From NCBI RefSeq assembly GCF_988243305.1, contig NZ_OZ547136.1: a stretch of DNA of 64,000 nt; one strand, written 5' to 3'. Under the pieces are notes generated by a model. It saw nothing but the letters and a program-made list of their open reading frames with translations, was not told where the DNA came from and did no database searches. The position numbers were made by a program, and so were the translations under genes. This document shows positions 2,552 to 53,914 of the stretch, piece by piece. The number at the start of each line of letters is the position of its first letter. Position 1 is the stretch's first letter.

Positions 2552-3730
2552 ATGAGTAATATTGTTTACCTGACAGTAACGGGAGAACAACAAGGAAACA
2601 TCTCCGCAGGTTGTGGGACTACTGAATCTATAGGTAATCGCTGGCAGAGTGGGCATGAGGATGAAATATTTACATTCTCACTCGCAAATAGAATTACTAA
2701 TACGGGACTTGGTTCACAGTTACAGGGTATGACATTTTGTAAATTAATTGATAAAAGCACTCCATTACTTATTAATTCCATTAACAATAATGAGCAATTA
2801 TTTATGGAATTTGACTTTTATAGAATCAATAGATTTGGTAGATGGGAAAAGTATTATTATATACAACTAAGAGGCGCTTTTTTATCGGCTATTCATCATC
2901 AGATCATTCAAAATCAACTGGATACAGAAACAATAACTGTTAGTTATGAATTTATCCTCTGTCAACATCTTATCGCAAATACCGAGTTCAGCTATTTGGC
3001 ACTCCCTGAAAATTATAACCGTTTGTTTTTACCAAATTCAAAAAACCAAACAAATAATCGTTTCAAAACTTTAAACAGCAAAGCTATTGGCAGGCTACTT
3101 GCTGCTGGTGGCGTATACAATGGGAACATTGAAGGATTCAGAGATACTGCGGAAAAACTGGGTGGAGATGCAATAAAAGGCTATGATCAAATACTAAATG
3201 AAAAAACAGCGGGCATAGCGATAGCAACAGCATCTATTCTTTTAACAAAGCGTTCTAATGTTGATACATATACAGAAATAAATAGTTACTTAGGCAAACT
3301 TAGAGGTCAACAAAAACTTCTTGATGGTATAGACATAATAGAAATAATATACATTAAGAGACCTTCAAAAGACTTAGCTAACTTACGAAAGGAGTTTAAT
3401 AAAACTGTAAGAAAAAATTTTCTTATCAAACTTGCAAAAACCTCCGAAGCATCTGGAAGATTCAACGCCGAAGACCTTTTAAGAATGAGAAAGGGCAATG
3501 TTCCTCTAAATTATAATGTTCACCATAAACTATCTCTAGATGATGGTGGTACTAATGATTTCGAAAATTTAGTATTAATCGAAAACGAACCATATCATAA
3601 AGTTTTTACTAACATGCAATCACGAATAGCTAAGGGAGTATTAGTAGGTGAAAGCAAAATCACTCCCTGGGCCATTCCATCTGGCTCAATTTATCCTCCC
3701 ATGAAAAATATTATGGAACCCACAAAATGA
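2552..3730 (+). CDS. yhhZ: Hcp-domain protein with a C-terminal HNH-like nuclease motif (T6SS-type polymorphic toxin)
   Basis: 392 aa; N-terminus IVYLTVTGEQQGN...EDEIFTFSL...KLIDKSTPLL fits the Hcp pattern; C-terminus has NVHHKLSLDDGGTNDFENLVLIENEPYH; AT-rich coding sequence. Confidence 0.85.
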   Translation: MSNIVYLTVTGEQQGNISAGCGTTESIGNRWQSGHEDEIFTFSLANRITNTGLGSQLQGMTFCKLIDKSTPLLINSINNNEQLFMEFDFYRINRFGRWEKYYYIQLRGAFLSAIHHQIIQNQLDTETITVSYEFILCQHLIANTEFSYLALPENYNRLFLPNSKNQTNNRFKTLNSKAIGRLLAAGGVYNGNIEGFRDTAEKLGGDAIKGYDQILNEKTAGIAIATASILLTKRSNVDTYTEINSYLGKLRGQQKLLDGIDIIEIIYIKRPSKDLANLRKEFNKTVRKNFLIKLAKTSEASGRFNAEDLLRMRKGNVPLNYNVHHKLSLDDGGTNDFENLVLIENEPYHKVFTNMQSRIAKGVLVGESKITPWAIPSGSIYPPMKNIMEPTK

Positions 3731-4221
3731 TGACTAAGACCCAAATAAATAAATTAAAAAAAATGATGAATGATTTAGACTATCCATTTGAAGCACCGCT
3801 TAAGGAATCATTTATTGAAAGTATAATCCAAATAGAATTTAATTCTAATTCAACTAATTGCCTGGAGAAGTTATGTAATGAAGTTAGTATTCTTTTTAAG
3901 AATCAACCTGATTATCTTACTTTTTTAAGAGCAATGGATGGATTCGAAGCTAATGGATTACGATTATTTAGCCTCTCGATTCCAGAACCTTCAGTTAAAA
4001 ACCTTTTTGCCGTAAATGAATTTTATAGAAATAATGATGATTTCATAAACCCTGATCTACAAGAACGGTTAGTGATCGGTGATGATAGCATTTCAATATT
4101 TACTTATGACATTAAAAATAACTTTTTTGAAATTAGAGATAATATTGGCACCGAAAATATATTCAGTTCGTTTAGTGATTTCTCTTCATTCTTAAACGAA
4201 ATCATGGACAGTTGTTCATAA
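3727..4221 (+). CDS. yrhA: Putative cognate immunity protein, translationally coupled to yhhZ
   Basis: 164-aa ORF overlapping the yhhZ stop (ATGA); AT-rich; intact here, whereas the K-12 locus is recalled to be interrupted by IS1. Confidence 0.6.
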   Translation: MMTKTQINKLKKMMNDLDYPFEAPLKESFIESIIQIEFNSNSTNCLEKLCNEVSILFKNQPDYLTFLRAMDGFEANGLRLFSLSIPEPSVKNLFAVNEFYRNNDDFINPDLQERLVIGDDSISIFTYDIKNNFFEIRDNIGTENIFSSFSDFSSFLNEIMDSCS

Positions 4222-4670
4222 TAATCAAAAGATAACAAAAATCATTGTAAACCATGCCATCTTTTTAGAGATTACCAGCAGAAAATTCCTTGTTCGAAAC
4301 TTAGCAATGCAAGCTATGGAAAAACTTACAACGGAACTACACTCCTTAAGTGAGATGGACCGAAGACATGTAATCTCTATTTTAGCCGAAATAGCTAATG
4401 GCTATGATGATTTTAGTGACATGTTGATTTAGTTAGAATTTCACCCGAATCATAAGATTCTGATATCTTAAATAAGAAAATCCCGTTCGACGTTCTGAAA
4501 AAGAAATCACAAAATATTAGCAGATACTTATTTCGTGACTGTATATTATCCGATGAACTTTTTTCAAAACTAGCATTTAATAATATCTTTGACGAAGATG
4601 AACGCGTCTTTGCTCAAAGTATAACGCAGGAATAATAATATAACGTTCAACAATAATATTTATTATAATT

Positions 4671-4955
4671 ATGATTACTTATCACGACGCATTCGCGAAA
4701 GCGAACCATTACCTTGATGATGCAGATCTCGCCGTCGTCATTACTCTACATGGACGCTTTAGCCAGGGCTGGTATTTCTGTTTCGAAGCACGAGAATTTC
4801 TCGAAACTGGTGATGAGGCCGCGCGTTTATCCGGTAACGCACCTTTTATTATTGATAAAGACAGTGGTGAAATTCATTCCCTTGGAACGGCAAAGCCGCT
4901 GGAAGAATATCTACAGGATTATGAAATAAAAAAGGCTACCTTCGGCTTGCCCTGA
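4671..4955 (+). CDS. yrhB: Small protein YrhB
   Basis: 94-aa ORF MITYHDAFAKANHYLDD... matching E. coli YrhB as recalled. Confidence 0.8.
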   Translation: MITYHDAFAKANHYLDDADLAVVITLHGRFSQGWYFCFEAREFLETGDEAARLSGNAPFIIDKDSGEIHSLGTAKPLEEYLQDYEIKKATFGLP

Positions 4956-4961
4956 CAATAC

Positions 4962-4985
4962 GGCCCTCTTCCCACGAAGAGGGCC
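4962..4985. terminator. GC-rich hairpin between convergent yrhB and ggt
   Basis: GCCCTCTT-cccacg-AAGAGGGC inverted repeat; no clear U-tract on either strand. Confidence 0.3.
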
Positions 4986-4992
4986 GCTAACC

Positions 4993-6735
4993 TTAATACC
5001 CCGCCGTTAAATCATCCACCGAGCGCGGATCGGATGCACCGTACAGCTCACCGTCCGGCCCAACCATAATGCTTTGTGTACTGCCCATCGCCTCTTTCAG
5101 CGCCACTTTCTGACCTTTTGCTTCCAGCAGCTTGAGCGTATCCGGGCTAAACCCTTTTTCGACACGCAGCTCGTCCGGCAACCACTGATGGTGGAAACGC
5201 GGTGCATTGGTCGCTTCGGCGACATTCATACCATAATCGATGCTGTTCACCACCATTTGCAGCACGGTAGTGATAATCCGGCTCCCGCCAGGGCTACCGG
5301 TAACCAGCCAGGTTTTACCGTCTTTCACCACAATGGTTGGGGACATCGACGACAGCGGGCGTTTATTCGGCCCGACCGCGTTGGCGTCACCACCCACCAG
5401 CCCGTAAACGTTCGGTACGCCAGGTTTGGCGGAGAAATCATCCATTTGGTTATTAAGCAGAATACCGCTCTCGCCCGCGACAATGCCCGTCCCGAAGGTG
5501 GTGTTCAGCGTATAGGTCACCGCTACCGCGTTGCCGTCTTTATCCACCACTGAGTAATGGGTAGTTTGATTACTCTCATAAGGCGCAAGCTTGCCGGGGC
5601 GAATTTCGCTGGATGGCTTCGCTTTATTGATATCGATTTGATCGGCAATAGATTTGGCATAGGCTTTATTGGTCAGCGCCTGCCACGGAACTTTGACAAA
5701 ATCCGGGTCGCCAAGATATTCCGAGCGGTCGGCGTAGGCATATTTCTCAGCTTCTGCCATGATTTGCATCGCGTCGGCGCTGCCAAAGCCGTATTTCTTC
5801 ATATCGAAGTTTTCCAGAATATTGAGGATTTGTACGATATGGATCCCGCCGGAAGATGGCGGTGGCATGGAGTAAACCTGATACCCGCGATAATCGCCGC
5901 TTATTGGTGTGCGCTCGACCGCTTTATACGCCGCTAAATCTTCTTTCGTGATCAGGCCGCCGTTTTTCTGCATCTCCTGAGCGATCTGCTCCGCTATTGT
6001 GCCTTTATAGAATTCGTCCGGGCCATTTTCGGCAATCATCTCCAGGCTCTTTGCCAGGTTCGCCTGCACCAGTTTGTCGCCCTTTTTCAGCGGCTCGCCC
6101 TCTTTCCAGAAGATAGCCTTGCTGTTTTCGTGATTCGGCAACACTTCGCTACCGTAGGTTTTGAGATCGTCAGCCAACGCGTCGTTAACGATAAAACCAT
6201 CGCGTGCCAGTTTAAACGCTGGCTGCACCACTTTGTTTAACGGCATGGTGCCGTATTTATCCAACGCCAGCGAGAAACCTGCTACCGTACCGGGCGTACC
6301 AGAAGCCAGATGCGAAGTGAGTGATTTTTTGCTGTCCGGGTTACCCTGATCATCAAGGAACATATCGCGGGTCGCTTTGGCGGGTGCCATTTCGCGGAAA
6401 TCGATAGCGGTGGTATTGCCATTTTTCGAGCGGATTAACATAAAACCACCACCGCCCAGATTCCCTGCCTGCGGATGCGTTACCGCCAGCGCGTAGCCCA
6501 CCGCCACGGCGGCATCAACGGCATTCCCACCCTCCTTGAGGATATCCACGCCCACCTGAGTGGCAGTAGCATCTACAGACGCCACCATCCCCTGTTTCGC
6601 GCGTACCGGATGGAAGACATCTTCCTCCACGCCATAAGAAACAGGTGGCGGAGGAGGCGCGGCGGCGGCGCTAAAACAACTTCCTGAGAGCAGAGCAGCA
6701 ATGGCCACCCGGCGTAAAAACGTCGGTTTTATCAT
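4993..6735 (-). CDS. ggt: Gamma-glutamyltranspeptidase
   Basis: ORF 4993..6762; start placed at MIKPTFLRR (580 aa) as in E. coli Ggt; signal peptide present. Confidence 0.95.
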   Translation of the reverse strand: MIKPTFLRRVAIAALLSGSCFSAAAAPPPPPVSYGVEEDVFHPVRAKQGMVASVDATATQVGVDILKEGGNAVDAAVAVGYALAVTHPQAGNLGGGGFMLIRSKNGNTTAIDFREMAPAKATRDMFLDDQGNPDSKKSLTSHLASGTPGTVAGFSLALDKYGTMPLNKVVQPAFKLARDGFIVNDALADDLKTYGSEVLPNHENSKAIFWKEGEPLKKGDKLVQANLAKSLEMIAENGPDEFYKGTIAEQIAQEMQKNGGLITKEDLAAYKAVERTPISGDYRGYQVYSMPPPSSGGIHIVQILNILENFDMKKYGFGSADAMQIMAEAEKYAYADRSEYLGDPDFVKVPWQALTNKAYAKSIADQIDINKAKPSSEIRPGKLAPYESNQTTHYSVVDKDGNAVAVTYTLNTTFGTGIVAGESGILLNNQMDDFSAKPGVPNVYGLVGGDANAVGPNKRPLSSMSPTIVVKDGKTWLVTGSPGGSRIITTVLQMVVNSIDYGMNVAEATNAPRFHHQWLPDELRVEKGFSPDTLKLLEAKGQKVALKEAMGSTQSIMVGPDGELYGASDPRSVDDLTAGY

Positions 6736-37638: not shown

Positions 37639-40441
<2,803 letters not shown>

Positions 40442-40639
40442 CACCTCCCAACGCGCCGTTATTTCCTGACGGCGCAGTAGACTTCTGCCAAATATCGACT
40501 CACGTCACATTTTTTTGATCACGATTTGGTCCCTCAAAATGTGAGACGCTTCGATCCTCTTTTTCTCCCGTTCACCTACTATACGCTTGAAGTTGTCCAT
40601 GATTGTCCATAGACAACTGTAAATGTTCAGGTGCGCGCC

Positions 40640-41386
40640 ATGAAATCATTAAGTAAGTCGTCACAAATACCGCTCTATCAACAAGTGGTGGAGTGGATAA
40701 GAGAAAGTATTTATACCGGGGATTTGGTGGAAGACGATCGCATTCCTTCGGAATACCAGATTATGGATATGCTGGAAGTGAGTCGGGGAACCGTTAAAAA
40801 AGCAGTCGCCCAACTGGTAAAAGAAGGCGTGTTGATTCAGGTCCAGGGGAAGGGAACATTTGTCAAAAAAGAGAACGTGGCATATCCGTTAGGTGAAGGA
40901 TTATTGTCATTCGCGGAATCGCTGGAAAGCCAGAAAATACACTTTACCACTGAAGTTATTACGTCACGGATTGAACCGGCTAATCGTTATGTGGCAGAGA
41001 AATTAAGAATAACGCCCGGTCAGGATATTCTTTACCTTGAGCGTTTACGTTCAATTGGTGATGAAAAAGCGATGCTGATAGAGAACCGTATCAATATTGA
41101 GCTATGCCCCGGCATCGTGGAAATCGATTTTAATCAACACAATTTATTTCCAACAATAGAAAGTTTGTCGCAAAGAAAAATTCGTTACTCGGAAAGTCGC
41201 TATGCCGCGCGATTAATTGGTAATGAACGCGGTCATTTTTTAGATATCAGTGAAGATGCACCCGTTTTGCATCTGGAGCAGTTAGTCTTTTTCTCCCGAG
41301 AGTTACCCGTTGAGTTTGGCAACGTCTGGTTAAAAGGAAATAAATATTATCTGGGTACCGTGCTGCAACGGCGGGAATTGAGTTAA
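40640..41386 (+). CDS. GntR/HutC-family transcriptional regulator (winged HTH plus UTRA-type effector domain)
   Basis: About 248 aa; N-terminus IPLYQQVVEWIRESIYTGDLVEDDRIPSEYQIMDMLEVSRGTVKKAVAQLVKEGVL is a typical GntR HTH; not in K-12 at this position. Confidence 0.8.
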   Translation: MKSLSKSSQIPLYQQVVEWIRESIYTGDLVEDDRIPSEYQIMDMLEVSRGTVKKAVAQLVKEGVLIQVQGKGTFVKKENVAYPLGEGLLSFAESLESQKIHFTTEVITSRIEPANRYVAEKLRITPGQDILYLERLRSIGDEKAMLIENRINIELCPGIVEIDFNQHNLFPTIESLSQRKIRYSESRYAARLIGNERGHFLDISEDAPVLHLEQLVFFSRELPVEFGNVWLKGNKYYLGTVLQRRELS

Positions 41387-41410
41387 ATACACTTTTTTAT
41401 GAGGAATAAA

Positions 41411-41884
41411 ATGCAAGGCATACAGTTTCAGGAAAATTATATTCAACGACTTCCGTCAGGGTTAAGCGTTGAACAGATCATCCGTCAGTTAGCGCAACCG
41501 TTGGTTGCTGCTGAGCTGGTGGTCCCTGATTTTGCCGATCACGTACTGAAACGTGAGGCGACGTACCCAACGGGGCTGCCTACCGAACCACCGTGCGTCG
41601 CCATTCCGCACACGGACCATAAATATGTCAGGCACAATGCAATTGCCGTCGGCATCCTGCCGGAACCGGTAGAGTTTGCCGATATGGGCGGCGATCCTGA
41701 CCCCGTACCTGTCAGGGTGATTTTTTTGCTCGCCTTAAGCGAAAGTAATAAACAATTAAATGCCCTGGGCTGGATTATGGAGATGATTCAGGATACGCCC
41801 TTTATGTGCGCCCTGCTTACGATGGAAACAACAGAAATACACACAGTAATCTTAAACAAAATGAAAGAACGAGGTGAAATATGA
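41411..41884 (+). CDS. PTS enzyme IIA, type-2 (fructose/mannitol/galactitol class)
   Basis: ATG at 41411 after GAGGA; contains VAIPHTDH, a candidate phospho-His site; about 157 aa. Confidence 0.75.
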   Translation: MQGIQFQENYIQRLPSGLSVEQIIRQLAQPLVAAELVVPDFADHVLKREATYPTGLPTEPPCVAIPHTDHKYVRHNAIAVGILPEPVEFADMGGDPDPVPVRVIFLLALSESNKQLNALGWIMEMIQDTPFMCALLTMETTEIHTVILNKMKERGEI

Positions 41885-42162
41885 GTCAAACCATTTTATT
41901 TGTCTGCGCCACGGGTATTGCCACATCCACGGCGGTAACAGAAAAAGTCATGGAATATTGTAAAGAGCACGGTCTTAACGTCAATTATTCCCAAACCAAC
42001 GTTGCCTCTTTACCTGGAAATACTGACGGCGTAGCACTGGTAGTCTCAACGACTAAAGTGCCTTATGAACTCGACGTCCCGGTGGTTAACGGCTTGCCGA
42101 TTATTACCGGTATTGGCGAAGAGAAAGTACTGGCGCAAATTGTTTCGATCCTTAAAAAGTAA
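41881..42162 (+). CDS. PTS enzyme IIB, galactitol family
   Basis: 93 aa; MSQTILFVCATGIATSTAV resembles GatB with the phospho-Cys in the C(A)TG motif; 4-bp overlap with IIA. Confidence 0.8.
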   Translation: MSQTILFVCATGIATSTAVTEKVMEYCKEHGLNVNYSQTNVASLPGNTDGVALVVSTTKVPYELDVPVVNGLPIITGIGEEKVLAQIVSILKK

Positions 42163-42238
42163 TTAATAATAATTAATTTCAACCCACTCCATCAGGCGCT
42201 AACGCGAGGTGCGCTCTCGCCTGAAAAAGAGGTTTATT

Positions 42239-43597
42239 ATGAACGATATCGCGCATACCCTCTATAATATTGTGCAATATATATTGGGATTTGGTCCCAC
42301 GGTAATGTTGCCGTTGGTGTTATTTATTCTTGCTCTCTTTTTTAAAGTAAAACCCGCTAAAGCCTTACGTTCGTCATTAACGGTCGGCATTGGTTTTGTC
42401 GGTATTTATGCCATTTTCGATATTCTTACCAGCAATGTCGGGCCAGCGGCCCAGGCGATGGTTGAACGCACCGGAATTAATTTACCGGTGGTGGATTTAG
42501 GCTGGCCGCCGCTTTCCGCTATTACATGGGGTTCGCCAATTGCCCCGTTTGTTATTCCCCTGACTATTCTGATTAACGTGGCGATGCTGGCGTTAAATAA
42601 AACCCGCACCGTTGACGTAGATATGTGGAACTACTGGCATTTTGCCCTTGCCGGTACGCTGGTTTATTACAGCACCGGCAGCCTGTTCTTTGGTTTGCTG
42701 GCAGCGGCGATTGCTGCGGTGGTAGTACTTAAACTCGCCGACTGGTCTGCGCCACTGGTACAAAAATACTTTGGCCTGGAAGGGATCTCTTTGCCGACGC
42801 TCTCTTCGGTGGTGTTCTTCCCGGTCGGTCTGCTGGTCGACAAAATCATCGACCATATCCCCGGCCTCAATCGTATTCATATCGATCCGGAAACCGTGCA
42901 GAAAAAGTTTGGCATCTTCGGTGAACCGATGATGGTTGGCACTATTCTGGGCATTCTGCTCGGCGTAATTGCCGGATACGATTTCAAAAAAGTCTTGCTG
43001 CTTGGCATCAGCATTGGCGGTGTGATGTTCATCCTGCCACGCATGGTTCGCATTCTGATGGAAGGTTTATTACCGCTGTCTGAAGCCATTAAAAAGTATC
43101 TCAATGCCAAATACCCTGACCGTGACGATCTCTATATCGGCCTGGATATCGCCGTTGCCGTAGGTAACCCAGCGATTATCTCCACCGCCCTGCTGCTGAC
43201 GCCAATCTCGGTCTTTATCGCGTTTGTCCTTCCGGGTAATGAAGTCCTGCCGCTTGGCGACCTTGCCAACCTGGCGGTAATGGCGTCGATGATTGCTTTA
43301 GCCAGCCGTGGCAACATTTTCCGCACCGTTCTGGCGGCGATTCCGGTGATTATTGCCGATCTGTGGATTGCGACTAAAATCGCGCCGTTTATTACCGGAA
43401 TGGCGAAAGACGTTAATTTCAAATTTGCCGAAGGCTCCAGCGGCCAGGTCTCCAGTTTCCTTGATGGCGGTAACCCATTCCGCTTCTGGCTGCTGGAAAT
43501 CTTCAACGGCAATCTCATCGCCATTGGTCTGGTGCCGGTTATCGCCCTGGTACTGTATGGTATTTTCCGAATGACGCGGAGCACGGTTTATGCCTGA
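42239..43597 (+). CDS. PTS enzyme IIC, galactitol family
   Basis: ATG at 42239 after AAGAGG; polytopic membrane protein with clear similarity to GatC (GPTVMLP..., ...VDVGWP..., ...PRMV..., ...GNEVLPLGDLA...). Confidence 0.85.
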   Translation: MNDIAHTLYNIVQYILGFGPTVMLPLVLFILALFFKVKPAKALRSSLTVGIGFVGIYAIFDILTSNVGPAAQAMVERTGINLPVVDLGWPPLSAITWGSPIAPFVIPLTILINVAMLALNKTRTVDVDMWNYWHFALAGTLVYYSTGSLFFGLLAAAIAAVVVLKLADWSAPLVQKYFGLEGISLPTLSSVVFFPVGLLVDKIIDHIPGLNRIHIDPETVQKKFGIFGEPMMVGTILGILLGVIAGYDFKKVLLLGISIGGVMFILPRMVRILMEGLLPLSEAIKKYLNAKYPDRDDLYIGLDIAVAVGNPAIISTALLLTPISVFIAFVLPGNEVLPLGDLANLAVMASMIALASRGNIFRTVLAAIPVIIADLWIATKIAPFITGMAKDVNFKFAEGSSGQVSSFLDGGNPFRFWLLEIFNGNLIAIGLVPVIALVLYGIFRMTRSTVYA

Positions 43598-45098
43598 TAA
43601 CAGCGCAGCTATCGTTATCGATATTGGCACCACCAATTGCAAAGTCACCTGCTTTTCCTGCCTGGACGCAACGACGTTGGGCGCGCATAAATTCGTGACG
43701 GCAAAACAGATCTCCCCACAGGGCAATGTCGATTTCGATATCGACGCCCTCTGGCAGGAGGTCCGCCAGGCGATAGCGCAACTGAACGCCGCTTCGCCGC
43801 TGCCAGTCAGGCGGATAAGCATTGCCAGTTTTGGCGAGTCAGGCGTGTTCCTTGACGAGCATGGCGAGATCCTGACGCCAATGCTGGCATGGTATGACCG
43901 TCGCGGTGAAGAGTATCTGGCTACACTTAGCGAGGCAGACAGTGCGGCACTTTATGACATTTGCGGGTTACCGCTGCACAGCAATTACTCTGCCTTCAAA
44001 ATGCGTTGGTTGCTGGAACATTACCCACTGCGTAATCGCCGCGGCCTGCGTTGGCTACATGCGCCGGAAGTACTGCTCTGGCGGCTGACCGGCGAACAGC
44101 GCACGGATATCACCTTAGCCAGCCGCACGCTGTGTCTTGACGTGCGCAAAGGCGAATGGTCAGCGAAAGCGGCGGCGTTGTTACACGTTCCCTGTTCAGC
44201 ATTTGCGCCATTGGTGCAGCCAGGCGAACACGCCGGATGGGTCAGCGAGTCGCTCTGCAAAATGCTTGGGTTCTCGCAACCGGTCAGCGTGACGCTGGCC
44301 GGACATGACCATATGGTGGGTGCGCGAGCGTTGCAGATGATGCCGGGCGATATCCTTAACTCGACGGGGACCACAGAAGGCATTCTGCAACTGGATACAC
44401 AACCGACGCTGGATGAACAGGCCAAACGTGACAAGCTGGCAAACGGCTGTTATTCGCTTGCAAACCAGTTCACCCTGTTTGCGTCGCTGCCCGTGGGCGG
44501 TTTCGCTCTGGAGTGGCTGCGTAACACGTTCCGGCTAACCGATGAGGAGATCGCCGCATCACTTACTCGCGGACATGCGGATTACCTGGCGGGGAACTGG
44601 TCGCTCGATGACATTCCCCTCTTTATTCCACATCTTCGCGGTTCGGGTTCGCCCTATAAAAATCGCCATACTCGTGGATTATTTTATGGGCTTGGCGATA
44701 CGTTAAATATCGACATGTTAATTGCCAGCGTCTCACTGGGATTAACCATGGAATTTGCCAACTGCTTCGCCTGTTTTAATGTGCCTGGCACCAGCGCGTT
44801 AAAAGTGATAGGTCCGGCAACCCAAAATCCCCTTTGGCTGCAATTAAAAGCGGATATTTTACAGCGTCCGGTTGAAGCAATTGCATTTAACGAGGCGGTT
44901 TCTGTCGGAGCATTATTAACTGCCGCACCGGATATTCCACCGCCGCAAGTTACCATAGCCCAACGTTTGTTACCGAATCGGGCGAGATACCATCAATTAC
45001 AGCGTTATCAGCACAAATGGAAAAGCTGGTATCAGTTGAAATTACAACAAGAAGGCGTGATGCCATTACATCATCGGGAGGAACACTATGTTGAATAA
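43590..45098 (+). CDS. FGGY-family carbohydrate kinase
   Basis: 502 aa; N-terminal VIDIGTTNCKV is an FGGY/actin-fold ATPase motif; overlaps IIC and the HPr-like gene. Confidence 0.75.
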   Translation: MPDNSAAIVIDIGTTNCKVTCFSCLDATTLGAHKFVTAKQISPQGNVDFDIDALWQEVRQAIAQLNAASPLPVRRISIASFGESGVFLDEHGEILTPMLAWYDRRGEEYLATLSEADSAALYDICGLPLHSNYSAFKMRWLLEHYPLRNRRGLRWLHAPEVLLWRLTGEQRTDITLASRTLCLDVRKGEWSAKAAALLHVPCSAFAPLVQPGEHAGWVSESLCKMLGFSQPVSVTLAGHDHMVGARALQMMPGDILNSTGTTEGILQLDTQPTLDEQAKRDKLANGCYSLANQFTLFASLPVGGFALEWLRNTFRLTDEEIAASLTRGHADYLAGNWSLDDIPLFIPHLRGSGSPYKNRHTRGLFYGLGDTLNIDMLIASVSLGLTMEFANCFACFNVPGTSALKVIGPATQNPLWLQLKADILQRPVEAIAFNEAVSVGALLTAAPDIPPPQVTIAQRLLPNRARYHQLQRYQHKWKSWYQLKLQQEGVMPLHHREEHYVE

Positions 45099-45357
45099 AA
45101 CCGTGGAGGTCAGAAACAGTACTGGCCTGCATGCACGTCCGGCGGCCTGTCTGGCGAAAGCCGCCAAAAAATATAGCTGTAAAGTGACGCTGCACTATGA
45201 GGGTAATGATATTAATGCCACCAGCATGATGAATATTATGCGCGCCGGAATAAAAGGCGGAAAAACGGTGGAAATACGCTGCGACGGTGATGATGAAAAC
45301 GAGGCCATACAGACTCTCACCGACTTATTTCGCGACCGCTTCGGTGAAGCTGAATAA
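45088..45357 (+). CDS. HPr-family phosphocarrier protein
   Basis: 89 aa; GLHARPAA contains the conserved active-site His; preceded by GGGAGGA. Confidence 0.8.
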   Translation: MLNKTVEVRNSTGLHARPAACLAKAAKKYSCKVTLHYEGNDINATSMMNIMRAGIKGGKTVEIRCDGDDENEAIQTLTDLFRDRFGEAE

Positions 45358-45388
45358 TTAACTGATATTAAAAGATGAGGTTTTCAAT

Positions 45389-46249
45389 ATGCCATTAGTT
45401 AATGGACGGATACTGCTCGACCGCATTCAGGAAAAACGGGTATTAGCGGGCGCGTTTAATACCACCAATCTGGAGACGACGATTTCAATTTTAAACGCCA
45501 TTGAGCGTTCAGGATTACCCAACTTCATTCAGATTGCGCCCACCAATGCACAACTCTCGGGATACGATTACATTTATGAAATCGTGAAACGTCACGCCGA
45601 TAAAATGGATGTTCCGGTCAGTCTTCATCTGGATCACGGGAAAACTCAGGAGGATGTTAAACAGGCGGTGCGCGCGGGCTTTACCTCGGTCATGATTGAC
45701 GGTGCCGCATTATCTTTTGAAGAGAATATCGCTTTCACCCAGGAAGCTGTCGATTTCTGTAAATCCTATGGCGTACCGGTTGAAGCGGAGCTGGGGGCGA
45801 TTCTCGGCAAAGAAGATGATCACGTCAGCGAAGCCGATTGCAAAACGGAACCGGAAAAGGTGAAGACCTTTGTCGAGCGCACCGGTTGCGACATGCTGGC
45901 AGTTTCTATTGGCAACGTTCATGGCCTGGACGATATACCGCGTATCGATATCCCCCTGCTGAAGCGCATTGCCGAAGTCTGCCCGGTGCCGCTGGTTATT
46001 CACGGCGGCTCCGGTATCGCCCCGGAAATATTACGCAGCTTTGTTAATTATCGCGTCGCTAAAGTAAATATCGCCAGCGATCTGCGCAAAGCGTTTATCA
46101 CCGCCGTCGGCAAAGCGTATGTGAATAATCACAACGAGGCGAATCTGGCACGAGTGATGGCATCAGCAAAAAACGCCGTCGAGGAAGATGTGTATAGCAA
46201 AATCCTGATGATGAATGAGGGGCATCGGTTGATTAGAAAGGCATCTTAA
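45389..46249 (+). CDS. Class II ketose-bisphosphate aldolase (tagatose/fructose-bisphosphate aldolase family)
   Basis: 286 aa; LHLDHG and VIHGGSG motifs typical of class II aldolases such as GatY/KbaY/FbaA. Confidence 0.8.
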   Translation: MPLVNGRILLDRIQEKRVLAGAFNTTNLETTISILNAIERSGLPNFIQIAPTNAQLSGYDYIYEIVKRHADKMDVPVSLHLDHGKTQEDVKQAVRAGFTSVMIDGAALSFEENIAFTQEAVDFCKSYGVPVEAELGAILGKEDDHVSEADCKTEPEKVKTFVERTGCDMLAVSIGNVHGLDDIPRIDIPLLKRIAEVCPVPLVIHGGSGIAPEILRSFVNYRVAKVNIASDLRKAFITAVGKAYVNNHNEANLARVMASAKNAVEEDVYSKILMMNEGHRLIRKAS

Positions 46250-46262
46250 GAGCCACAAAAAT

Positions 46263-46297
46263 ATAGCGGCGCAACAGAAATTGTTGGGCCGCTATAA
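46263..46297. terminator. Strong hairpin between convergent aldolase and hicB-like genes
   Basis: ATAGCGGCGCAACA-gaaa-TTGTTGGGCCGCTAT inverted repeat; A/T-rich flanks on both sides. Confidence 0.35.
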
Positions 46298-46298
46298 G

Positions 46299-46658
46299 TT
46301 ATAAATGATTCAAACGCTCATTCAGTGTTTCAATAATATAGGTATTTACAGAGACTTGTTGCTGCGCAGCCGCATTATTAAGGCGTTCACTCAGCGATTC
46401 TGGATAGCGTAATGTAAAGGTCTTAATCTTTTCTGTACGCGCATACGGCTCAATACCCGCAGCTTTACAATCCTCAAGATACTCTCGCAGGGAAAGCTCC
46501 CCTTCTTTTTGCAGCCCCTGAATGCTGTCAGAGACAAAATCACAATAACCTGACAAGCCCAGGAATTTGCCACGAAATGCATTCAGTTCTGGCACGTAAG
46601 TGATAACTGCAGGTTGCCCGGCAATCTCCATAGAGTTTGGTGTCTTCAGTTTGATCAT
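46299..46658 (-). CDS. hicB: HicB-family antitoxin (UPF0150 domain plus C-terminal ribbon-helix-helix)
   Basis: 119 aa; C-terminus TFTLRYPESLSERLNNAAAQQQVSVNTYIIETLNERL is RHH-like; 4-bp overlap with the upstream toxin gene. Confidence 0.7.
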   Translation of the reverse strand: MIKLKTPNSMEIAGQPAVITYVPELNAFRGKFLGLSGYCDFVSDSIQGLQKEGELSLREYLEDCKAAGIEPYARTEKIKTFTLRYPESLSERLNNAAAQQQVSVNTYIIETLNERLNHL

Positions 46659-46930
46659 GGTTTTACCCCTATACTTAGTAACCAGTCACGCACGCTTTCT
46701 ACAGCGCCTTTATCGGTATCTGGCGACGGATGAGGCCGATGGAAACACGCAACGCTCATATTTAGTATGAACTTACAACGCGAACCTCTTCCTTCCTTAA
46801 TTTCTCCGCCTAATGCTTTAACCAGTGACTCTATATCAGACCACTTAATCCCTTGAGGAACAGGAGATTTAAATATTTGATCCAATGTATTTTTTTGTTT
46901 CTTCCGTAAAGCCTGTACCTGGGTTCTCAT
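46655..46930 (-). CDS. hicA: HicA-family (YcfA-like) toxin
   Basis: 91 aa; LVKALGGEIKEGRGSRCKF...FHRPHP...VRDWLLSIGV fits the HicA pattern; lies upstream of the antitoxin gene as in hicAB. Confidence 0.6.
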   Translation of the reverse strand: MRTQVQALRKKQKNTLDQIFKSPVPQGIKWSDIESLVKALGGEIKEGRGSRCKFILNMSVACFHRPHPSPDTDKGAVESVRDWLLSIGVKP

Positions 46931-52291: not shown

Positions 52292-53914
52292 TCAGAGCTG
52301 TAACATTGTGCGCCTTCTAATCAAAGGCATAAGTCCATTTCTGTTTTTTTCATGCTGGTAAGACTTCCAGGGAGTGGTTATCTCAGGCCCTGCACCAGGG
52401 TTAATTTGGCAATTATGCATGCTGAACATTCTTCCAGCATGTTTACTGTCACGGGCGTTAAGACCTAAAACTGTCCCCGTTTCACCTATGCGTTCTCTTC
52501 CACCATTACCGTTATGTGCAACAACTTGATTTATACCTAACATTTGTGAGCATGCTAATAGTTCTTCAAGTTTCGGTCTGTAATCTGTCGAAACAGAAAA
52601 ATAACGATTAAAGGATCGACAAGAGATAGCCCGGCTAGTTTTAAACTTTTTACCATTAATTATAGTATGATGCTTTTTATTAATAATTGCCGCTAATTCG
52701 ACCGGATCGAGAGCATTGGCCATTTCATCAATAGAGACTGTTATCGGTCCTATAATGTAACGTTTTCGCTGATCATCAAAAGTTATCCCATGATGATTTG
52801 CCATTATTTTGTATTTGGGGTCATAGAAACATACAGGATAATCTTTTATCCCAGCGTAGGTATCCTCATCAAGTGGTTTCATACGCGTGAAGTTCTGCAT
52901 ATAGTTACCATTGCAATTCGTTTCATGATTACCAGCTAATACATGAACATTTTTATTAATACTCATTATGCGTTTTAACAAATCGATGATAAATTGATCG
53001 CCACAGATATTACTAAATCGATCGCCGGTTTGGTCACCCAGAAACGTACATGGCGTCACAGCGTCTTTATTAATAACTAAATAAGGCTGAAGACTTTCTA
53101 AAACTATATCTCTTCTGTTCAGAATACTGATTATTGTATTAACATTAGTGTCAAGTTGCTCATTAAAGTTCTCCCTTAGCAATACGTTGAGAACTTCATC
53201 TTCTATATTAAGCAACTGGCTAAGGAAATTTTCCCCTTCAGCCATGATTCCCAAATATCCCGTTGCGAAAAGCGCGTATAAAACTGCACCAACTGAGCCA
53301 TCGGTATCGCCAAAATAGGTTGGTCTGGTACTTGTGGGATCAACAGGTGAACAATTGGAGAAATAGATTCTGTCAGCGAACTGGGGTTTTATCATTGTTT
53401 CGAATTTAATATCAGATACATTGTATTGCGATATTTTCCAGTTCCAGATGGGTTTGTACGACTCAGTAACTGCAACATCATTAGCATTATCATTTACTGT
53501 CATATTATTAAGTAAATAAACAATGCTGCACCAATTAATATCGGTATCATCAAGAGGGCAACCGTAATTTTTACTATTAATTGTCACAATAAACTGATAA
53601 CTATTATTCCTACGTAGAATATGGGCACGCATGCCCGATAGCATACTATATTTTTCTGAATGATTCGTTTCTATGGTAAATGAAATTTTGTCATCTTGAA
53701 AAGATTGTTGGAAACGTTCTATTTGCCAATCATCAATTTTTTCCACAACTTCACCGAGCATTGTCCTGGCAATACTTGATATATCATCACCTATACCATT
53801 TGCAATATACCCAAACAGTTCTTTAGTGAAGTTAGTAACATGCTCTTGCACCATATCATTTGTTGCGATAGTCGTTATACTGTCGTTAGTACCTGCCACA
53901 GTTCCAATTTTCAT
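52292..53914 (-). CDS. yhiJ: DUF4049-type protein with metallophosphoesterase-like motifs
   Basis: 540 aa; AT-rich; contains YFGDTDGSVG, FLGDQTGDRF and, 29 aa later, LAGNHETN, then HHG; recognisable as E. coli YhiJ. Confidence 0.85.
   Translation of the reverse strand: MKIGTVAGTNDSITTIATNDMVQEHVTNFTKELFGYIANGIGDDISSIARTMLGEVVEKIDDWQIERFQQSFQDDKISFTIETNHSEKYSMLSGMRAHILRRNNSYQFIVTINSKNYGCPLDDTDINWCSIVYLLNNMTVNDNANDVAVTESYKPIWNWKISQYNVSDIKFETMIKPQFADRIYFSNCSPVDPTSTRPTYFGDTDGSVGAVLYALFATGYLGIMAEGENFLSQLLNIEDEVLNVLLRENFNEQLDTNVNTIISILNRRDIVLESLQPYLVINKDAVTPCTFLGDQTGDRFSNICGDQFIIDLLKRIMSINKNVHVLAGNHETNCNGNYMQNFTRMKPLDEDTYAGIKDYPVCFYDPKYKIMANHHGITFDDQRKRYIIGPITVSIDEMANALDPVELAAIINKKHHTIINGKKFKTSRAISCRSFNRYFSVSTDYRPKLEELLACSQMLGINQVVAHNGNGGRERIGETGTVLGLNARDSKHAGRMFSMHNCQINPGAGPEITTPWKSYQHEKNRNGLMPLIRRRTMLQL

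Follow-up and report, generated by a model that had tools for sequence, protein, structure and literature searches.

The accessory island and its regulator

The window, a 64,000-nucleotide stretch of DNA, is part of an Escherichia coli chromosome in which nikABCDE-nikR is followed by an accessory island and then by yhhJ-rbbA. The left edge of the island lies directly after the nikR stop codon (40441), and island-free genomes align to the query only as far as this codon. A total of 1637 of 5426 complete E. coli genomes (~30%) carried the island, including O157:H7 and Nissle 1917. The island genes are listed below; the regulator gene was identified from its GntR wHTH and UTRA domains and its RefSeq annotation, and the remaining genes from domain/family searches and annotation.

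40640–41386, + strand: GntR/HutC-family regulator gene (248 aa), first gene of the apparent operon
41411–41884, + strand: PTS IIA
41881–42162, + strand: PTS IIB
42239–43597, + strand: PTS IIC-Gat (galactitol family)
43590–45098, + strand: FGGY kinase
45088–45357, + strand: HPr-like protein
45389–46249, + strand: class II ketose-bisphosphate aldolase

Intergenic spacing within this set ranged from overlaps up to 76 bp at most, so that the genes appear to form a single seven-gene operon with the regulator first; the structural genes (41411–46249, + strand) are presumed to be co-transcribed with the regulator.

Several other features were observed at the island edges and beyond. A perfect 7-bp stem, GCGCCGT-N9-ACGGCGC (40453–40475), is situated 12 bp past the nikR stop codon, inside the left edge of the island; it is without a trailing T-run, is kept in Escherichia and may be the nikR terminator or an insulator of the island promoter. 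A HicB/HicA toxin-antitoxin pair (PF05534, PF07927) is encoded at 46299–46930 (− strand), in the interval that separates the aldolase gene from yhhJ; the pair is missing in strain AF40, where the distance from the aldolase gene to yhhJ is 90 bp, and the right island edge thus differs among strains. Two large paralogous ORFs on the − strand, 52292–53914 (540 aa) and 54176–55849 (557 aa), are unrelated to the operator considered below, and the former matched DUF4049 (E = 1.9e-176) and gave a faint metallophosphatase signal.

The regulator contains a GntR-type wHTH domain (PF00392, residues 12–75, E = 3.8e-16) and a UTRA effector domain of the chorismate-lyase fold (PF07702, residues 98–236, E = 1.3e-26). 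A structural-genomics structure of the effector domain, PDB 3HFI, corresponds almost exactly to residues 79–248 of the protein, with one substitution in the alignment. The regulator aligned over its full length with NagR/YvoA (E = 2.6e-21 to 4U0V), placing R49 at NagR Arg48, G70 at the wing residue Gly69 and Tyr39 at the position equivalent to Arg38. R49, G70 and the whole SRGTVKK helix were invariant in 21 homologues, down to 52% identity. No named equivalog (PhnF, HutC, TreR, LSA1692 and others) could be assigned, the best NCBIfam scores being 119 bits (cut-off 275) and 117 bits (cut-off 157).

A three-box array upstream of the regulator gene

The first-pass annotation of this DNA had described a dyad, AGTTGTC-N14-GACAACT, about 25 bp upstream of the regulator gene, with an internal direct repeat. 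The dyad is present at 40591–40618, and its arms (40591–40597 and 40612–40618) are perfect reverse complements separated by the 14-nt spacer CATGATTGTCCATA. The direct repeat is likewise real, with TTGTCCAT occurring at 40593–40600 and again at 40603–40610 with a period of exactly 10 bp, and the distance given was close, as 21 bp separate the end of the dyad from the ATG at 40640, the same start that is annotated in RefSeq. A tighter second dyad, TTGTC-N4-GACAA (40603–40616), was absent from that description. Accordingly annotated, the region comprises the following candidate elements:

40591–40618, + strand: whole putative operator array, coinciding with the dyad described earlier; three half-site units in 10-bp register, AGTTGTCCAT, GATTGTCCAT and inverted ATAGACAACT (from sequence and matrix score)
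40603–40616, no strand: inner palindrome TTGTCCATAGACAA (TTGT-N6-ACAA), proposed core site for one regulator dimer (from the pairing of columns 13–16 with 23–26)
40593–40600, + strand: upstream direct-repeat box TTGTCCAT, 10 bp from the second box, proposed auxiliary third half-site (T3, T4, G5, A9 and T10 invariant or nearly so)

The TTGT/ACAA boxes occupy 40593–40596, 40603–40606 and 40613–40616, with centres at ~40594.5, 40604.5 and 40614.5, so that neighbouring centres are offset by exactly one helical turn (10 bp). Boxes 2 and 3 make the palindrome TTGT-N6-ACAA, and box 1 directly repeats box 2. In several genera, the inner site TTGTCCATAGACAA takes the form of a perfect palindrome, TTGTCTATAGACAA.

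Taken alone, the dyad was statistically insignificant, since 13% of shuffled 199-bp intergenic regions held a perfect 7-bp dyad with a spacer of 0–20. This frequency would suit a chance inverted repeat without function, but such an origin is effectively refuted by the conservation seen in the comparative evidence presented below, and we assign it a negligible probability. For specificity, an operator matrix of 28 columns was trained on 23 non-Escherichia sites, with 20 shuffled 64-kb windows as background. The position 40591 (+ strand) scored 36.8 bits and was the sole significant match in the 64-kb window, the runner-up scoring 13.9 bits and the shuffled maximum being 16.0 bits. The matrix scan detected no second operator within the E. 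coli island, whether upstream of the IIA gene or of the aldolase gene. The runner-up, AGTTGTTCATAATAATCAAAAGATAACA (4210–4237), is located at the 3' end of an ORF (3727–4221) and is probably a chance match because its score falls below the shuffled maximum. When a degenerate regular expression for two phased units was applied to 729 kb of related loci, it matched predicted promoters only, apart from one stray match beside a PTS promoter. Moreover, among eight Escherichia sequences, 22 positions were variable in 40442–40569 vs. none in 40570–40639 (Fisher p = 6e-5).

Alignment of 24 distinct orthologous sites revealed which parts of the array are constrained. Columns T4, G5, A9, T10, T13, G15, T16, A19, G22, A23 and A26 were invariant, and all four core pairs of the inner TTGT-N6-ACAA (columns 13–16 with 23–26) were essentially so. 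By comparison, 67.9% of arm cells paired in the outer 7-bp arms, with pair 1-28 unpaired in 13 sites, pair 2-27 in 14 and pair 7-22 in 19. A single dimer bridging two 7-bp arms across a non-specific 14-bp spacer, which was the site unit originally drawn, would fit the perfect arms of Escherichia and Citrobacter, the lineage to which the perfect form is specific, as well as the pairing of TTGT (columns 3–6) with ACAA (columns 23–26) in most orthologous sites. However, the outer and innermost arm pairs are mostly unpaired and the spacer, which holds the invariant A9, T10, T13, G15, T16 and A19, is conserved like the arms, and for these reasons the 7-N14-7 dyad is not the working unit. The centres of its boxes are also 20 bp apart, whereas half-sites are spaced by 10 bp in a HutC-family dimer on DNA (PMC4333415), and the arrays of Gilliamella and Enterococcus are mainly direct repeats. 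We consider the dyad as drawn to be quite improbable; instead, the aligned sites indicate that the working unit is a set of three TTGT boxes spaced by 10 bp, consisting of the inner palindrome and one direct box.

The further expectation of a GT/AC palindrome, typical of the HutC subfamily, held for the form of the site. The operator does conform to the palindromic pattern Ny-GT-Nx-AC-Ny, with half-sites TTGT (40603–40606) and ACAA (40613–40616) and 6 nt between them. The distance from GT to AC is 6 nt (GT-CCATAG-AC), and not the 4 nt found in the HutC-subfamily consensus GTMTAKAC, which puts the site with the exceptions that the same survey lists (PMC4494728). In the NagR-dre crystal, a HutC-family dimer contacts 4-nt half-sites that are six nucleotides apart, GTGG-TCTAGA-CCAC (PMC4333415).

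Conservation of the array in orthologous loci

Briefly, an alignment of 21 homologues of the regulator (52–89% identical) was scanned against one genome per species, which gave 53 loci spanning Enterobacterales, Gilliamella, Enterococcus, Selenomonas/Centipeda, Clostridia, Sporolactobacillus and one Coriobacteriaceae MAG. The gene set of the E. coli island was kept, in several orders, in essentially all full-length loci. Inspection of the 120 bp upstream of the regulator gene identified a phased TTGTnnAT box array directly before this gene in 53 orthologous loci from several phyla, the common pattern being 3–4 nnTTGTnnAT units in strict 10-bp register right after the −10 region. The arrays took the following forms:

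Group-1 Enterobacterales and Salmonella: AGTTGTACATGATTGTC(C/T)ATAGACAACT
Group-2 Enterobacterales: ACTTGTGCATAGTTGTATATAGACGATC and variants
Gilliamella: AGTTGTCCAT AGTTGTACAT AGTTGTCTAT GGATGTATAT
Enterococcus and Clostridia: ACTTGTACAT GGTTGTCTAT AGTTGTCCAT GGTCGTGTAC
Selenomonas: nearly perfect 38-bp palindrome of two direct and two inverted units

Box polarity therefore varied by clade: Gilliamella, Enterococcus and Clostridia have 3–4 direct boxes, E. coli combines two direct boxes with an inverted one, and Selenomonas has two of each orientation. A fourth, inverted box in E. coli (ATGTTCA, 40623–40629, kept in group 1) was considered and rejected, as it lies 14 rather than 10 bp from box 3 and overlaps the Shine-Dalgarno region.

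In group-1 loci, the operator motif is unchanged, and the stretch from the CRP-like site described below to the −10 has freely diverged. The regulators of these loci are 84–99% identical, so recent common ancestry or horizontal transfer may account for some of the conservation seen within group 1. The conservation argument, as judged from the aligned promoters, is carried by the group-2, Gilliamella and Firmicutes loci; in Gilliamella, Enterococcus and Clostridia, 3–4 phased TTGTnnAT units directly follow the −10 and nothing else is alignable.

A second copy of the motif was found upstream of the IIA gene in 14 group-2 loci that have a separate IIA-IIB-IIC-kinase(-dehydrogenase) unit. This copy, e.g. 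ACTTGAACATGGTTGTACATAGACAACC, is located ~50–60 bp before IIA, and a near-perfect CRP site (TGTGA-N6-GCACA) lies 69–70 bp upstream of it. The presence of a motif at two promoters of one cluster is a classical signature of the cluster's own regulator. In E. coli, the IIA gene starts 24 bp past the regulator gene within one operon, and a separate IIA operator is accordingly not expected there. Both comparative checks that had been proposed for the candidate operator thus came out in its favour: the motif occupies the same promoter position in the orthologous islands (53 loci) and recurs upstream of the PTS IIA gene wherever the 14 group-2 loci place that gene in a unit of its own, with no separate copy in the single operon of E. 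coli.

The group-2 loci (L021–L034, L051) also encode two extra Zn-dependent dehydrogenases, e.g. at 4777–5811 and 7936–9114 of L023, which are missing from the E. coli island. This hints at use of a polyol by group 2 and, possibly, at direct uptake of the corresponding ketose through the E. coli island.

Proposed promoter layout

CRP and −10 sites were placed by fixed-offset inspection across loci. Together with the ribosome-binding region, the elements flanking the array in the window are:

40540–40555, + strand: CRP-like site TGTGAGACGCTTCGAT, a 7/10 match to TGTGA-N6-TCACA with its centre ~43.5 bp upstream of the first base of the operator; putative function, from conserved spacing
40577–40582, + strand: putative −10 TACTAT, 8 bp upstream of the operator, 4/6 consensus; TATCAT or TATTAT in orthologues
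40629–40633, + strand: Shine-Dalgarno AGGTG of the regulator gene, from sequence; kept in group-1 loci

In nearly all Enterobacterales regulator promoters, TGTGA was found at −49 to −52 from the operator start with diverged intervening sequence, and Gilliamella has a perfect TGTGA-N6-TCACA. A strict sigma-70 scan (40300–46400) called no promoter in the intergenic region, which is consistent with an activator-dependent promoter without a −35; the proposed promoter draws on conserved spacing and not on consensus strength. The −10 lies 29.5 bp downstream of the centre of the CRP-like site. From this arrangement, transcription would start near 40589–40591, which would put the CRP centre at ~−41.5 to −43.5 and the operator at ~+1 to +29. 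In the PTS promoters of group 2, the CRP centre is ~61–62 bp upstream of the operator, which corresponds to class I geometry and implies the same start. The array of Enterococcus and Clostridia begins 2–3 bp after a TACAAT or TATAAT −10. Repression would thus act at initiation, given that the array follows the −10 in all of these promoter layouts.

Additional conserved sequences were observed in these promoters. In group-1 loci and Salmonella, a box of the form TGATC-N6-7-TTGG/TTGAA-C(A/C)CC (40516–40535) lies ~5–25 bp upstream of the CRP-like site, and Salmonella has a second TGTGA within the corresponding region; candidate roles for this box are those of a second CRP half-site, of an UP element or of a target for some other factor. 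The Enterococcus/Clostridia loci (L039–L050, L053) contain cre-like sequences, e.g. TGATACCGATTACA, ~60–100 bp upstream of the regulator gene, which overlap the −35 to −10 spacer and the −10. These were called by eye against the cre consensus, and they suggest CcpA-type catabolite control in Enterococcus and Clostridia where the gammaproteobacterial loci would use CRP.

A start near 40589 would also put a hairpin at the extreme 5' end of the mRNA, and the repeat might then function as an RNA stem-loop (40591–40597 with 40612–40618) that stabilises the transcript or modulates translation, instead of or besides serving as a DNA site. The minimum-energy fold of 40589–40660 contains the hairpin (−16.1 kcal/mol), but its z-score is modest (z = −2.08, with 6/200 shuffles folding as well) and the changes among orthologues are not compensatory: both sides of a pair had changed in one of 168 cells, covariation stayed under the shuffled mean, and substitutions broke pairs. 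Conservation is seen at the level of sequence, predicted loop included, and neither the second copies of group 2 nor the direct-repeat arrays of Firmicutes and Gilliamella are able to form the same hairpin. An RNA element is, on balance, unlikely; a side effect of the hairpin might be a more stable transcript in E. coli. In the same minimum-energy fold, the Shine-Dalgarno (AGGUG) and AUG of the regulator gene were paired in a second hairpin, 40622–40650, a region that is nearly invariant in group-1 loci.

Probable assignment of the operator and proposed mechanism

Overall, the three-box array at 40591–40618 is best explained as the operator of the downstream HutC-family regulator, through which this protein would repress its own operon, and the comparative evidence leads us to place the probability of this reading at about 80%. 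It is very probable that the regulator does bind DNA at the inverted repeat before the GntR/HutC gene. The original proposal of an operator for the adjacent regulator, placed for autoregulation, is therefore upheld at the level of comparative genomics by conservation at 53 loci and by the second copies before IIA. Autoregulation would follow because the regulator is encoded by the first gene of the repressed operon.

As the assignment of protein to site was made by sequence comparison, and as CRP-like and cre-like sites indicate that other factors do act on the same promoters, the array might in principle be bound by a different transcription factor, global or unlinked, rather than by the adjacent HutC-family protein. 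This is very unlikely, since the motif follows the regulator gene through unrelated chromosomal contexts and across phyla (it adjoins nikR in E. coli and uhp in Salmonella, and has other surroundings in other taxa). Furthermore, the motif is essentially confined to promoters of the regulator's gene cluster in the DNA scanned, its GT...AC palindromic signature and half-site spacing fit the GntR/HutC family, and the recognition helix and wing of the regulator are invariant, as is the motif core.

With the adjacent regulator as the binding protein, we propose that one dimer would occupy the palindrome TTGT-N6-ACAA in the manner of NagR on dre, and that the extra box 1 would help to recruit a second dimer or stabilise the first. 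On a CRP-dependent (class II-like) promoter, the array would span ~+1 to +29, and repressor bound there would prevent initiation or promoter escape, affecting all seven genes of the operon. Binding of a phosphorylated intermediate of the PTS substrate to the UTRA domain would then relieve repression. Several points count against this model: direct repeats are no obvious match for a symmetric dimer, the GT-to-AC distance is 6 nt where 4 nt is typical of HutC-subfamily motifs, and the CRP-like site and the −10 agree with their consensus at only 7/10 and 4/6 positions.

A broader and more tentative reading, which we regard as doubtful, joins these observations differently. The regulator may bind as a higher-order head-to-tail or mixed-polarity assembly on one face of the DNA, reading 3–4 TTGT boxes 10 bp apart in an architecture kept from Firmicutes to Enterobacterales, and its operon may specify a PTS pathway not previously described, one that would pass a PTS-phosphorylated ketose to an FGGY kinase and a class II aldolase.

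Through the operator, an uncharacterised accessory island for sugar utilisation becomes open to experiment; Salmonella subspecies I carries a counterpart. Combined with the probable arrangement of the promoter and with the effector-domain structure (3HFI), the operator should ease reporter fusions and inducer screens, and the inducer would reveal the substrate. The layout of three to four boxes at 10-bp spacing, with polarity varying by clade, also constitutes a small, clean case for the use of auxiliary half-sites by HutC-family dimers. The finding leaves general principles unchanged and concerns a feature of an ordinary kind.

Comparison with known systems

The searched literature (by locus tag, gene content and operator sequence) contained no description of an operator site or regulon for this locus, and no published report of binding, footprint, transcription start or expression. 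The motif sequences were also absent from the supplementary files of the GntR-motif survey (PMC4494728). Identity with the published vpe PTS locus was considered and rejected, as vpe adjoins deoK on a different island. The operator prediction is thus apparently new; as a sequence-based prediction it is solid and testable, with a multi-box layout that is somewhat unusual.

The closest counterpart is Salmonella STM3779–STM3785, an orthologous cluster with an 82% identical regulator and nearly the same gene order, which adjoins uhp and thus occupies a different chromosomal site from the E. coli island. This cluster carries the same operator, AGTTGTACATGATTGTCTATAGACAACT. It has been described only as an H-NS-silenced PTS of unknown specificity (PMC3604774), and no operator report for it was found in the searched literature.

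The regulator resembles NagR (YvoA) and DasR of B. subtilis and Streptomyces in its domain architecture and full-length alignment. The similarity extends to the site, which like that of NagR on dre has a core 14-bp palindrome with 4-nt half-sites 6 nt apart (PMC4333415). It also extends to the setting, a promoter from which a PTS/sugar catabolic operon is expressed along with the regulator gene, with a sugar phosphate as the presumed effector. Unlike the dre system, the half-sites are TTGT/ACAA and not GTGG/CCAC, Tyr39 occupies the position of NagR Arg38, and a third phased box is present (and a fourth in other taxa); the substrate of the dre system is GlcNAc.

The layout of the array is reminiscent of FarR/MngR operators, FarR recognising 10-bp direct repeats, TGTATTAWTT (PMC4494728). 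Both consist of 10-bp head-to-tail units starting with TGT; boxes 1 and 2 of E. coli are direct repeats, and Gilliamella, Enterococcus and Clostridia have 3–4 direct TTGTnnAT units at exact 10-bp spacing. In contrast to FarR/MngR operators, Enterobacterales and Selenomonas have their distal unit(s) in inverted orientation, the last Enterobacterales box making a true palindrome, and the unit sequence is different, so that the likeness is one of operator layout.

The array can also be compared with GntR-family palindromes that have an auxiliary half-site. The survey of the family by Suvorova, Korostelev and Gelfand (2015) described weaker extra boxes 7–12 nt from the palindrome centre in four HutC orthologous groups (PMC4494728). 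The upstream box in the present array is a feature of this kind, although its centre lies farther out, ~15 bp from the palindrome centre and 10 bp from the nearer half-site. Unlike the weaker extra boxes of the survey, this upstream box is as conserved as the half-sites of the palindrome.
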